From a virus (taxonomy: Duplodnaviria; Heunggongvirae; Uroviricota; Caudoviricetes), in IMG/VR virus record IMGVR_UViG_2778261536_000004: 2,799 nt of DNA; one strand, 5' to 3'. The number at the start of each line of letters is the position of its first letter. The first letter of the stretch is position 1. Positions 1 through 2,799 of this stretch are shown here, piece by piece. A model generated the notes under the pieces. The model ran no database searches and was not told the DNA's origin. It saw only the letters and a list, made by a program, of their open reading frames with translations. Made by a program: the position numbers and the translations under genes.

Positions 1-126
1 TCAAAGACATGCTTTAACCAACACGGTAATTATCATCCAGTGGTCATAGCAGTCGTTGATGTTCTCCGCTTCGATAACTCTGTTGAATGGTTCTCCATTC
101 CATTCACCTGTGACTCGGAAGTGCAT
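1..126 (-). CDS. Small hypothetical protein, 41 aa (MHFRVTGEWNGEPFNRVIEAENINDCYDHWMIITVLVKACL)
   Basis: Seen in sequence: ATG at 124-126 (minus), TGA stop at 1-3, and a GGAG Shine-Dalgarno 8 nt upstream (minus-strand TATGGAGATGATAA-ATG). Not in the supplied ORF track (short); hand-translated. It lies just downstream of the terminator at 165-195, so its transcription source is unclear. Confidence 0.3.
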   Translation of the reverse strand: MHFRVTGEWNGEPFNRVIEAENINDCYDHWMIITVLVKACL

Positions 127-215: not shown

Positions 216-497
216 TTACTTCTTGGCGTTCTGTTCATCCATATCGATATACCATGGGTTGCTTCCCTTGGGCATGTTTAACGACTGCTCGCGATAGTAT
301 CTGATGCGCTCCATGAAATACTCGCGTGAGTGCTCAGGTTGCTCTCATGATACCTGCTCAGTGATAACAGGTATGTTAAGGCGCTCTCTGTACTCCATGC
401 CTGATGCTGCAAGGTCAACGTTTACCTTGTTCTGTTTTTCTTTCGATTTCTCGGCGATGTTATGCCTGACATTGTCAACCCGCCTCCTTCTGAACAT
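216..497 (-). pseudogene. Reading frame of 93 codons interrupted by a single in-frame TGA (plus 345-347); possible nonsense-disrupted gene, or alternatively just a 32-aa ORF at 216..314
   Basis: Seen in sequence by hand translation of the minus strand: ATG at 495-497, 50 codons (MFRRRRVDNVRHNIAEKSKEKQNKVNVDLAASGMEYRERLNIPVITEQVS), TGA, then 42 codons in the same frame (EQPEHSREYFMERIRYYREQSLNMPKGSNPWYIDMDEQNAKK) to TAA at 216-218, followed by the terminator. There is no convincing Shine-Dalgarno at the 497 ATG, and the first codons (AGA AGG AGG CGG) are really the 3' end of the overlapping 475..717 gene in another frame. Inference only. Confidence 0.25.
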
Positions 498-717
498 AAC
501 GGTTATAAATCAGTCCCTGAGGGCCATAAGGAAGCGGGATGTGCAACTCCTCTGGTTCAGAAACTATCCATTCCCCGGCCATCTCCGCTGGAGAGGTAAT
601 GATAAGTTGTTTGCTAATAAAAGGACCACTCCTCTCAACAACAAGCTTACCATCTTCATTAATAAAAGCTTGGATGTCAGGTGTGCTTCCACACTTGGTG
701 ATGCAGCGTTTGAACAT
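475..717 (-). CDS. Hypothetical small phage protein, 80 aa (MFKRCITKCGSTPDIQAF...NRYVQKEAG)
   Basis: Seen in sequence: the ORF track gives 475..759, but the ATG at 757-759 and the one at 730-732 lack a ribosome-binding site. The ATG at 715-717 is preceded by a purine-rich G tract (GGGGGGA, 6 nt spacer), so I prefer that start. TGA stop at 475-477. The opposite-strand ORF 304..762 has junk-like, Cys/Ser/Leu/Phe-rich composition. No family recognised. Confidence 0.5.
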   Translation of the reverse strand: MFKRCITKCGSTPDIQAFINEDGKLVVERSGPFISKQLIITSPAEMAGEWIVSEPEELHIPLPYGPQGLIYNRYVQKEAG

Positions 718-747
718 TTTGTGTCCCCCCATTTTATGTACGGGGTA

Positions 748-777
748 ATTATAACACATTGAAATATAGTAATATTT
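748..777 (-). promoter_or_regulatory. Candidate extended -10 promoter (TGnTATAAT) with adjacent palindrome, directing leftward transcription of the 475..717 gene
   Basis: Seen in sequence: minus-strand TGTTATAAT (the TATAAT hexamer is plus 748-753 reverse-complemented), placing a transcription start near 741. The inverted repeat AAATAT-AGTA-ATATTT (plus 762-777) overlaps the expected -35 region. The intergenic region 760-843 is AT-rich, so chance matches are likely; there is no good -35 hexamer. Confidence 0.3.
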
Positions 778-843: not shown

Positions 844-1452
844 TCACCCATCTTGCTGCGGTGCTACTATTGAAAAGTACTCACACCCTTTAGCCCAAAT
901 AGTTTTGATAGTTGTCCAACTGACTGGAACCTTGATTTCGATTCTCCCGCTGCCGTCACAAGTTTCGCAATCATCATCACCAAAGCATTCCGGGCAGCTT
1001 ATAAACGTAGTTTCTGAAAATTCACCGGATAGCACACCCTTAGCGCCGTTCTCAGCGGTTAGTTTCTTCGGCACTATAACCCAACCATCCGGAGTTACCG
1101 GAGAGTTGCCCGATGGCTCGTTCAACTTGCAAGTTTGGCTTACAGGTTCGGCTTCCAGTTCTGCTATGCGCTTTTTTGCTGCTTCCAGCTCGCCAAGCAG
1201 CGCCAAGACGGTAGCCGGATTGGCTGCGGCGATGAATTCAGCATTGGCCTGCTGTTCCATTTGGAAATCTTCATCGAAACCGCTTTCAGGATGCGCTCCT
1301 TCAATTCTGCAAATGGGAAGATATCCAACAACTTCACGATGAATTAGCGCATCACCAGCATCAAATCTCTCCTCTCCATATTCGAGCGACCACACACCAC
1401 TCGTTGCTTTCTCTGCCTTTTCACGCAGCGCCTGATAGTTAATTTTGGTCAT
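844..1452 (-). CDS. Ead/Ea22-like prophage protein, 202 aa, with a C-terminal CxxC-x5-CxxCxGxG zinc-finger-like motif
   Basis: Seen in sequence: 202-aa ORF with ATG at 1450-1452, 1 nt after the upstream gene's stop (TGA-T-ATG). Established knowledge, from memory: the N-terminus (MTKINYQALREKAEKATSGVW) and the coiled-coil-like LLGELEAAKKRIAELEAE segment resemble Ead/Ea22-family proteins of lambdoid phages. Cys153/156/162/165 (CPECFGDDDCETCDGSGR) are encoded at 958-996. Family call not checked by search. Confidence 0.6.
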   Translation of the reverse strand: MTKINYQALREKAEKATSGVWSLEYGEERFDAGDALIHREVVGYLPICRIEGAHPESGFDEDFQMEQQANAEFIAAANPATVLALLGELEAAKKRIAELEAEPVSQTCKLNEPSGNSPVTPDGWVIVPKKLTAENGAKGVLSGEFSETTFISCPECFGDDDCETCDGSGRIEIKVPVSWTTIKTIWAKGCEYFSIVAPQQDG

Positions 1453-1453
1453 A

Positions 1454-1753
1454 TCACATCACCCTGAAGCCGTTGCATTTACGTAAGAAATCGCAGATAT
1501 AGCCCTTCATTTTTTCATGCCAATCTCGATCATTCCCATTGCACCAACCATCAGGTGGAGTCCAGTTTTCTATCAGAGCAGCCATTTTCTTTGCTTTCGC
1601 CGGAGTAGCTGTTGCGGTATCGCAGTAATGACGAGTGTCAACCAACGCATCCATACCATCGATATCAAGTACGCAAAACCATGTGTGATTCGGCATTCTA
1701 ACAGATGGTATTTGTTGCCCACGTCGACGTTTATCAATAAGACATACACTCAC
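1454..1753 (-). CDS. Hypothetical small phage protein, 99 aa, Cys/His/Trp-rich
   Basis: Seen in sequence: GTG start at 1751-1753 preceded by a strong Shine-Dalgarno AAGGAGG (plus 1759-1765 reverse-complemented, 6 nt spacer). The start overlaps the upstream gene's TGA stop (GTGA), indicating translational coupling. Stop TGA at 1454-1456. Protein-like composition; no family recognised. Confidence 0.6.
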
Positions 1754-1917
1754 TGCTTGCCTCCTTTACGCCACATCGCATTCAGATATTTGTTGTCATT
1801 AACAGAACCGAAACTCTTCCTTTTAAGCAATTCCTCTCTCGATGGCATTGGCTTTACGCGTTGGCGAATAATCATTTCTGCCGGAAGAATGCCGGGATTG
1901 TATGCAAGTCCTCTCAT
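1750..1917 (-). CDS. Hypothetical small basic protein, 55 aa ([55 protein letters not shown])
   Basis: Seen in sequence: the ORF track extends this frame to a TTG at 2067 with no ribosome-binding site, overlapping the 1928..2221 gene. The ATG at 1915-1917 is preceded by GAGG (8 nt spacer) just after the upstream gene's stop, so I prefer this start. Stop TGA at 1750-1752 overlaps the next gene's GTG start. Confidence 0.5.
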
Positions 1918-1927
1918 GGTAAATTCC

Positions 1928-2221
1928 TCAGTCATTACTGATAGCGCCATAGCGTGAGCGGTAATTACGCAGGCGCGGGTCAATTTCAGGGAAGTGGGTA
2001 TATGTGGCTTTGCGGAATGGTCGGATTGATGTCTGGTAAATTCGCTCTCGTTCTTCTTTCTCTGCAAGCCATATACAGTGGCGAAATTCCTTTTCCTCTT
2101 TCGTTTCCTGCGGTAGCGACATTATCCGATCGTAGTTTTTTCTGAATTTATCCAGCACCTCTGATACGGAATTGCCGGAACAGCGGCGCGCGTCGTCCGC
2201 ACCATACAGAGGCGCTGGCAT
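1928..2221 (-). CDS. Hypothetical phage protein, 97 aa, Glu/Lys/Arg-rich
   Basis: Seen in sequence: ATG at 2219-2221 preceded by AGGAG (minus CAGGAGAAAATC-ATG); TGA stop at 1928-1930. It starts 13 nt downstream of the ssb-remnant stop. No family recognised. Confidence 0.6.
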
Positions 2222-2234
2222 GATTTTCTCCTGA

Positions 2235-2453
2235 TTAAATTGCGTGAATAGCGTGACGAGGGAAGGGGAGAGTTACTGGTGCAAAGGGTATATCGTCGTC
2301 AAAATCCATAGGTGGTTCGCTGTGATTCCCCTGCTGCTGAGATTGCTGTCTTTGTTGCTGACCGTTATTTCGCTGAGGTGAAGACTGTTCATTGCCTCCT
2401 TGCTTGCCACCAAGCATTTGCATGGTTCCACCAACGCCCACGATGACTTCGGT
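2235..2453 (-). pseudogene. ssb: ssb (single-stranded DNA-binding protein) 3' remnant: OB-fold N-terminus missing, C-terminal linker and acidic tip retained, native stop lost
   Basis: Seen in sequence: the minus-strand frame encodes [20 protein letters not shown]...[12 protein letters not shown]. Established knowledge: E. coli SSB has [20 protein letters not shown] followed by a Gly/Gln/Pro-rich linker and ends ...[11 protein letters not shown]. Upstream of about 2453 the similarity stops (frame closes at TAA 2508-2510, no OB-fold sequence in any minus frame). After DIPF the frame continues 15 codons ([15 protein letters not shown]) to TAA at 2235-2237. Confidence 0.6.
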
Positions 2454-2799
2454 AAGTGATTTTGAAATTAACTTAAAAGTCGCGCATATCGTGCTAGGAA
2501 AAAACAATTACGACTGGGATCCAGAAAAGAAAGAAGTTTACTTGGCTGGAATTGATGGTGGTGAGTTTTTGCCTTGCGGATATTTCGACCCATGTAATAT
2601 GGCCGCTGACGCATATCCGATCATCACTGAAAACAAAATTAGCACCATGTGGATGACAGCGGAAAAAGAATGGTGCGCATGGTCAGGAGGTGATTTAGAG
2701 GAAGGTTGTTGGGTTCCTGACTACTGCTTCTGCGGTGAATCGCCTCTCCGCGCAGCCATGATTGTATTTCTCATGATTCAGGACGCCAATAATGCTTAG
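2443..2799 (+). CDS. Hypothetical Trp/Cys-rich protein on the plus strand; start uncertain, possibly 5'-truncated at the ssb junction
   Basis: Seen in sequence: plus-strand frame open from 2392 to TAG at 2797-2799. From about 2460 the translation is protein-like (…[35 protein letters not shown]…[46 protein letters not shown]), while all three minus-strand frames over 2508-2799 are broken by stops or lack an ATG. Codons before about 2455 are antisense to the ssb linker. The ATGs at 2422 and 2443 have no Shine-Dalgarno. No family recognised. Confidence 0.35.

Follow-up and report, generated by a model that had tools for sequence, protein, structure and literature searches.

A minus-strand ssb fragment that runs directly into a plus-strand gene raises the question of what event brought the two together. 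The arrangement lies near the right end of the 2,799-nucleotide stretch of DNA analyzed here (the window). The initial annotation had placed a rearrangement breakpoint at 2420-2520 and offered two origins for it, either a deletion of the 5' ends of two divergent genes with their intergenic region or an insertion into ssb of foreign DNA carrying the plus-strand gene. It also proposed an alignment to prophages with an intact ssb, an extension of the locus to the right, and a family search with the plus-strand protein. The flagged interval does contain a sharp break in homology, at 2453/2454. We consider it highly likely that one illegitimate deletion of ~10 kb, in a decayed lambdoid/P22-like prophage of Escherichia coli, joined the tail of ssb to a near-complete ninX gene. 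The features of the window, from left to right, are as follows.

1 to 32, plus strand: internal fragment of dsdC (nucleotides 549-580 of the gene), a 100% match to L001 10763-10794, within dsdC at 10215-11150 (L001 being the intact prophage described below)
33 to 126, minus strand: 5' part of a small phage ORF, from the ORF list; E. coli prophage matches start at window 31-34
216 to 497, minus strand: phage-borne HolE/HOT-like homologue of DNA polymerase III theta, whose reading frame contains a TGA (345-347); Pfam PF06440 matches both halves
475 to 759, minus strand: hypothetical 94-aa early-left ORF, no family match
844 to 1452, minus strand: ead/Ea22-like gene (PF13935, E = 1.8e-19)
1454 to 1753, minus strand: DUF7739 gene (PF24881, E = 1.1e-20)
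1750 to 1917, minus strand: DUF2737 gene (PF10930, E = 1.7e-29)
1928 to 2221, minus strand: intact abc2 anti-RecBCD gene, matched over its full length (PF11043, E = 5.6e-63)
2235 to 2454, minus strand: 3' fragment of a phage ssb, codon 100 to stop, by alignment to the intact SSBs of L001 and HK75
2443 to 2799, plus strand: 118-aa fusion ORF as called by gene finders, with an ATG and three further codons (MTSV) from ssb antisense sequence, in frame into ninX
2453 to 2454, no strand: probable deletion junction, a TA dinucleotide present in both parents (2-bp microhomology)
2453 to 2799, plus strand: ninX from nucleotide 17 of the gene to the stop codon, 100% identical over 347 nt to ninX of four E. 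coli prophages (PF10765)

Coding signal from ~33 to 2454 is entirely on the minus strand in the ORF list, and this part of the window is the early-left (pL) operon of a lambdoid/P22-like phage. The ORF called at 1-126 (41 aa) is itself a fusion that ends in dsdC antisense sequence. The only plus-strand gene is the one at the right end, which had been described correctly as the sole rightward coding signal. A search against Rfam families returned no match to the window at E values up to 1.

Base-by-base comparison of ssb, ninX, and the window located the junction. The last base assignable only to ssb is G2452 and the first assignable only to ninX is A2455, with T2453-A2454 common to both; minus-strand ssb homology stops at 2454, and plus-strand ninX homology begins at 2453. 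At the join, the parental ssb reads CTTCGGTA followed by GTGAACC, and the parental ninX reads CACAGTTA followed by AGTGATTT (in a longer view, ATGGATTATTCACAGTTA followed by AGTGATTTTGAA). The window reads CTTCGGTAAGTGATTT across the same point (in the other view, CTTCGGTAAGTGATTTTGAA). Each base can be assigned to one parent or the other, only TA is shared, and no IS end, att site, or long repeat is present at the join, which is the pattern of an illegitimate (microhomology) deletion. A crossover inside the 5-bp AGTGA that ssb and ninX have in common was considered and rejected: it predicts GGTAGTGATTT, one A short of what is observed, which puts the join at TA.

Database matches break at the same place. 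Of 5,426 complete E. coli genomes and 50,697 phage records searched by megablast with the entire window as the query, 3,035 and 367, respectively, gave matches, and all early-left-operon/ssb matches that reach ssb end at window position 2459, with one gap, none going further. When positions 2400-2799 alone were used as the query, ssb matches covered 2400-2459 with one gap (E = 5e-19), and ninX matches ran from 2453 to 2799, four being 100% identical throughout the 347 nt (E = 0). Neither collection contained a record that spanned both sides. Judged from these alignments, both homologies are far beyond chance.

Both genes are truncated at the junction. The ssb fragment lacks codons 1-99 of the 157 in the reference, and the ORF at 2235-2507 on the minus strand can be aligned with the last 72 residues of intact phage SSBs. 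The fragment retains the Gly/Gln-rich linker, the acidic tip DFDDDIPF, and a 15-aa extension after the tip, as in the intact HK75 SSB; the N-terminal OB fold is deleted, only residues from codon 100 on are left, and a Pfam search returned no SSB match for the fragment. The ORF of 60 to 90 aa opposite the fusion ORF is an ssb pseudogene. On the other side, ninX has lost its first 16 nucleotides, which comprise MDYSQ and the first base of codon 6 (Leu), and so lacks its own ATG and first five codons (native start, MDYSQLSDFEIN); the native Shine-Dalgarno sequence GAGGAAA is deleted as well. It is not a complete gene with a native start codon and ribosome-binding site.

The family of the plus-strand protein, for which a search had been proposed, is NinX (Pfam PF10765, formerly DUF2591). 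The match scores 40.2 bits against a gathering cutoff of 22.6 and spans profile positions 5-114 of 114, and the conserved motifs of the NinX family of P22-like phages are present. The two differ at the start, where the native N terminus is MDYSQL and the protein encoded in the window has MTSV from ssb antisense sequence. The initial annotation had singled out a Trp/Cys-rich C-terminal half as unusual, a description that does not hold, as this is an ordinary NinX allele. The stretch is nearly identical in NinX of Salmonella phage Sasha, other sequence occupies its place in the P22-type (ST104) and L001 alleles, and only one Cys is invariant in a five-sequence alignment; the stretch is an allelic module, and the family is an ordinary one of unknown function. 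No solved structure was related to NinX by sequence (best E value, 0.037), and among the papers listed by a literature search none dealt with the phage gene, the name matching mostly nickel-nitrogen chemistry.

Alignment to prophages with an intact ssb defined both the breakpoint and the loss. L001, an intact prophage of E. coli CUVET20-1667 (NZ_CP115361.1), occupies the same chromosomal place, adjoining dsdC. It carries ssb at 14769-15242 (minus strand) and ninX at 24944-25306 (plus strand), in the order and orientation seen in the window but ~10.0 kb and 17 annotated genes apart. These genes encode a Rad52/Erf-type recombinase, kil, a small ORF, DUF2528, a hypothetical protein, N, rexB, rexA, a cI-type repressor, cro, cII, a small ORF, a replication protein, a replicative helicase, ninB, an adenine methylase, and ninE. 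The retained part of ssb ends at L001 14946 and the ninX part would start at ~24960, which gives a deleted interval of approximately L001 14947-24959. Removal of this interval in one step yields the arrangement of the window exactly. Thus, the earlier proposal that the 5' ends of two divergent genes were lost by deletion was right about the ends and wrong about the scale, since in intact relatives the two genes are separated by far more than an intergenic region.

The same comparison extends to the phages Sf6, HK75, N7, and IME10, which like L001 show 95 to 97.6% nucleotide identity to the window over the ead-to-ssb arm, with the same gene order and the same orientation of ssb and ninX. In contrast to the window, all five retain a full ssb, the ~10-kb recombination/immunity/replication block, and a full ninX; in L001, abc2 and ssb are separated by an additional ~460-bp block, and the ninX allele is different. 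In the junction-carrying loci, the chromosomal flank from evgS to dsdC is 99.97 to 100% identical to that of CUVET20-1667. The locus is thus a defective remnant, collinear with intact prophages on both sides and short of 17 genes relative to L001.

Loci that carry the junction have the gene order evgS-evgA-emrK-emrY-dsdA-dsdX-dsdC', remnant, ninX'-ninF-ninG-ninH, and the evgS-emrY-dsdA-dsdX-dsdC' flank is present in L003-L005, which identifies the attachment locus. The argW/dsdC locus is a hypervariable site at which Kapi1, Sf6, HK620, and KplE1 integrate, with xis adjoining dsdC, and P22-like phages are located between yfdC/argW and dsdC (PMC8787464). The window would accordingly represent the xis-proximal end of a decayed prophage of the KplE1/Sf6/Kapi1 type at this site. 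A second deletion junction lies at ~32/33, where truncated dsdC is joined to phage DNA, and in L005 a truncated LysR-type ORF of 198 aa runs into the start of the window. Because window positions 1-32 are an internal piece of dsdC fused to phage DNA, the prophage's xis/torI end and attL were lost in this second deletion, as was the 3' third of dsdC. Truncation of dsdC, the D-serine regulator gene, could affect D-serine metabolism in the carrier lineage.

The rightward extension that had been proposed showed that relatives with the same junction continue with ninF, ninG, and ninH. This is normal phage order (intact ninX copies lie between ninE and ninF), and the larger inserted module that the extension might have revealed is not supported. 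In these relatives ninH is interrupted near its 3' end, at L003 11295, by sequence that we take to be the left end of IS1; the median number of places matched by L003 11301-11688 in an E. coli genome is 10. The junction-carrying contigs all end in or before this stretch (L003 11295-11688), and the element is therefore seen only up to ninH.

Could the junction have been produced by assembly? The exact 118-aa fusion protein is listed in 29 blocks of the collection used for the exact-sequence look-up and occurs on at least 24 contigs; at NCBI it is named "DUF2591 domain-containing protein [Escherichia coli]" and is found on 22 contigs. The junction is unchanged in all six loci retrieved, which come from two NCBI assemblies, three assemblies of Logan runs, and an ENA metagenome contig and match the window at 99.8%. 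The exact junction 24-mer had no match in the GTDB species-representative genomes, IMG/VR, or the JGI metagenomes, which together with the absence of the junction from the 5,426 complete genomes might suggest a chimera or sequencing artifact. However, the carrier lineage is not represented in those collections, contigs assembled by separate projects with different pipelines share the junction, and a 2-bp overlap is too short to mislead a k-mer assembler. With six independent loci carrying the junction unchanged, an artifact has a negligible probability; the junction is real and inherited. Equally implausible is that the arrangement works in its present form as a natural mosaic boundary of a viable phage; the one argument for it is the open reading frame that crosses the junction. 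Against it, the SSB is without its OB fold and NinX without its conserved start, no repressor, replication genes, or promoters are left between the two operons, and the locus is damaged on both flanks, by truncation of dsdC on the left and by the presumed IS1 in ninH on the right.

A single deletion suffices, because order and orientation on both sides match those of an intact lambdoid/P22-like prophage. An illegitimate recombination between two elements, a resident prophage and a second prophage or infecting phage, would leave the same structure and is unlikely. It could account for the fact that the closest relatives of the left arm carry a very different ninX (L001 NinX is only 42% identical to that of the window at the amino acid level), while the copies of ninX that are 100% identical sit in prophages with a different, RecT-type recombination module; no intact progenitor with both this ssb arm and the exact ninX allele was found. 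But lambdoid phages are mosaic, and the free variation of allele combinations among relatives explains the mismatch just as well. Moreover, a single prophage would have exactly this order and orientation, and the number of events is no lower than for a deletion. The initial annotation's other suggestion, here the insertion of a foreign ninX-ninF-ninG-ninH segment into ssb, fares worse and is very improbable. The right flank beyond ninH is hidden by the presumed IS1 and the contig ends, where a downstream 5' part of ssb could lie; yet insertion needs two illegitimate joins rather than one, the supposed insert consists of the phage's own nin genes, oriented as usual with respect to the pL operon, and ninX is itself truncated at the junction.

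For the single ~10-kb deletion, we infer an essentially homology-free event (2-bp TA overlap) between ssb codon 99/100, in the leftward pL operon, and ninX nucleotide 16/17, in the rightward pR/nin operon, probably through RecA-independent illegitimate recombination, by slippage or end joining at TA. The event would have removed the 5' two-thirds of ssb (codons 1-99 of 157), the Erf/Rad52-type recombinase, kil/cIII, and N, and also the immunity region (cI, cro, and cII with pL and pR), the replication genes, and ninB-ninE. With the immunity and replication block lost, the remnant is predicted to be noninducible and unable to replicate, and both surviving gene blocks would be without their native promoters and the N antiterminator. 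The junction is a scar without an active role.

The fusion ORF reads MTSV from the ATG at 2443 and then continues SDFEIN, and the sequence preceding the ATG, CCACCAACGCCCACG, contains no ribosome-binding site. In a consensus scan, the stretch from 787 to the junction contained no promoter-like site on the plus strand; the sole match on that strand is at 759-787, and the window as a whole has fewer such sites than shuffled sequence gives. The description of the junction as having no intergenic space, promoter, or ribosome-binding site between the two genes was therefore accurate, the genes overlapping at TA. Given that it has neither a Shine-Dalgarno sequence nor a promoter-like site, the 118-aa ORF is most likely silent, and its in-frame ATG is best read as a coincidence. 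An exact-protein look-up found no record of a 135-aa version with a TTG start. The deposited 118-aa "DUF2591 protein" is best regarded as a fusion artifact of the deletion.

Cryptic lambdoid prophages are well known in E. coli and include KplE1/CPS-53 (at argW-dsdC), Rac, DLP12, and Qin. Like the remnant described here, they are of the P22/lambda type, have regulatory, replication, and other genes deleted, and are further eroded by IS elements, and KplE1 is at the same site. KplE1 keeps its torI/xis end, whereas the remnant does not and has a truncated dsdC. The survivors also differ, being here the theta homologue, ead, DUF7739, DUF2737, abc2, the ssb fragment, and ninX-ninH. The locus is an instance of routine prophage decay, another event of a known kind, and one more well-resolved example at a hypervariable site, with three steps visible: the immunity/replication block was deleted, the xis end disappeared along with part of dsdC, and the presumed IS1 inserted.

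A comparable structure occurs in L010, the sbcB-site prophage of E. coli VE-T2, in which a rightward adenine methyltransferase gene of the nin region, truncated at the N terminus, directly adjoins an early gene that reads leftward (L010 18583-19337). This prophage likewise has no immunity (repressor) or replication genes; it differs in the prophage, the site, and the breakpoints, and its gene arrangement points to a second, independent pL-operon-to-nin deletion. It is quite unlikely, in our estimation, that such deletions are a recurrent, selected way in which E. coli disarms lambdoid prophages while sparing abc2, the theta homologue, and ninG, with the ninX fusion expressed and retained.

Several smaller observations concern the left arm. 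The TGA in the theta homologue sits where E. coli HolE has Arg, and the half downstream of it is still open and still matches the theta profile. RefSeq labels the gene "internal stop" in L001 and L010, and all of the 32 copies examined carry the TGA, among them 24 IMG/VR contigs and prophages that look intact. The gene may be a pseudogene, may be read through, or may yield a functional 50-aa product, readings that are not separable because the alleles are nearly identical. For the same set of 32 almost identical copies no selection test is possible, and the TGA was rejected as evidence of recoding. On the minus strand, a strong terminator-like hairpin at 176-196 (GAACCCGCCGAGTGCGGGTTT followed by a T run) follows the theta homologue and precedes the small ORF at 1-126.

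In abc2, five single-nucleotide differences within 121 bp (window 1958-2078) are the sole differences between the window and the other junction-carrying loci, as checked base by base in four of them. The cluster looks like a short gene conversion patch from the abc2 allele of another prophage. The free C-terminal Phe of SSB is important for partner binding, which makes the SSB allele of the window curious, since it runs 15 residues past the canonical DDDIPF tip (2235-2291, minus strand). The SSB of phage HK75 (L009 2791-3297), which is intact, has the same extension, whereas that of L001 stops at IPF and is followed by the ~460-bp block that precedes abc2.
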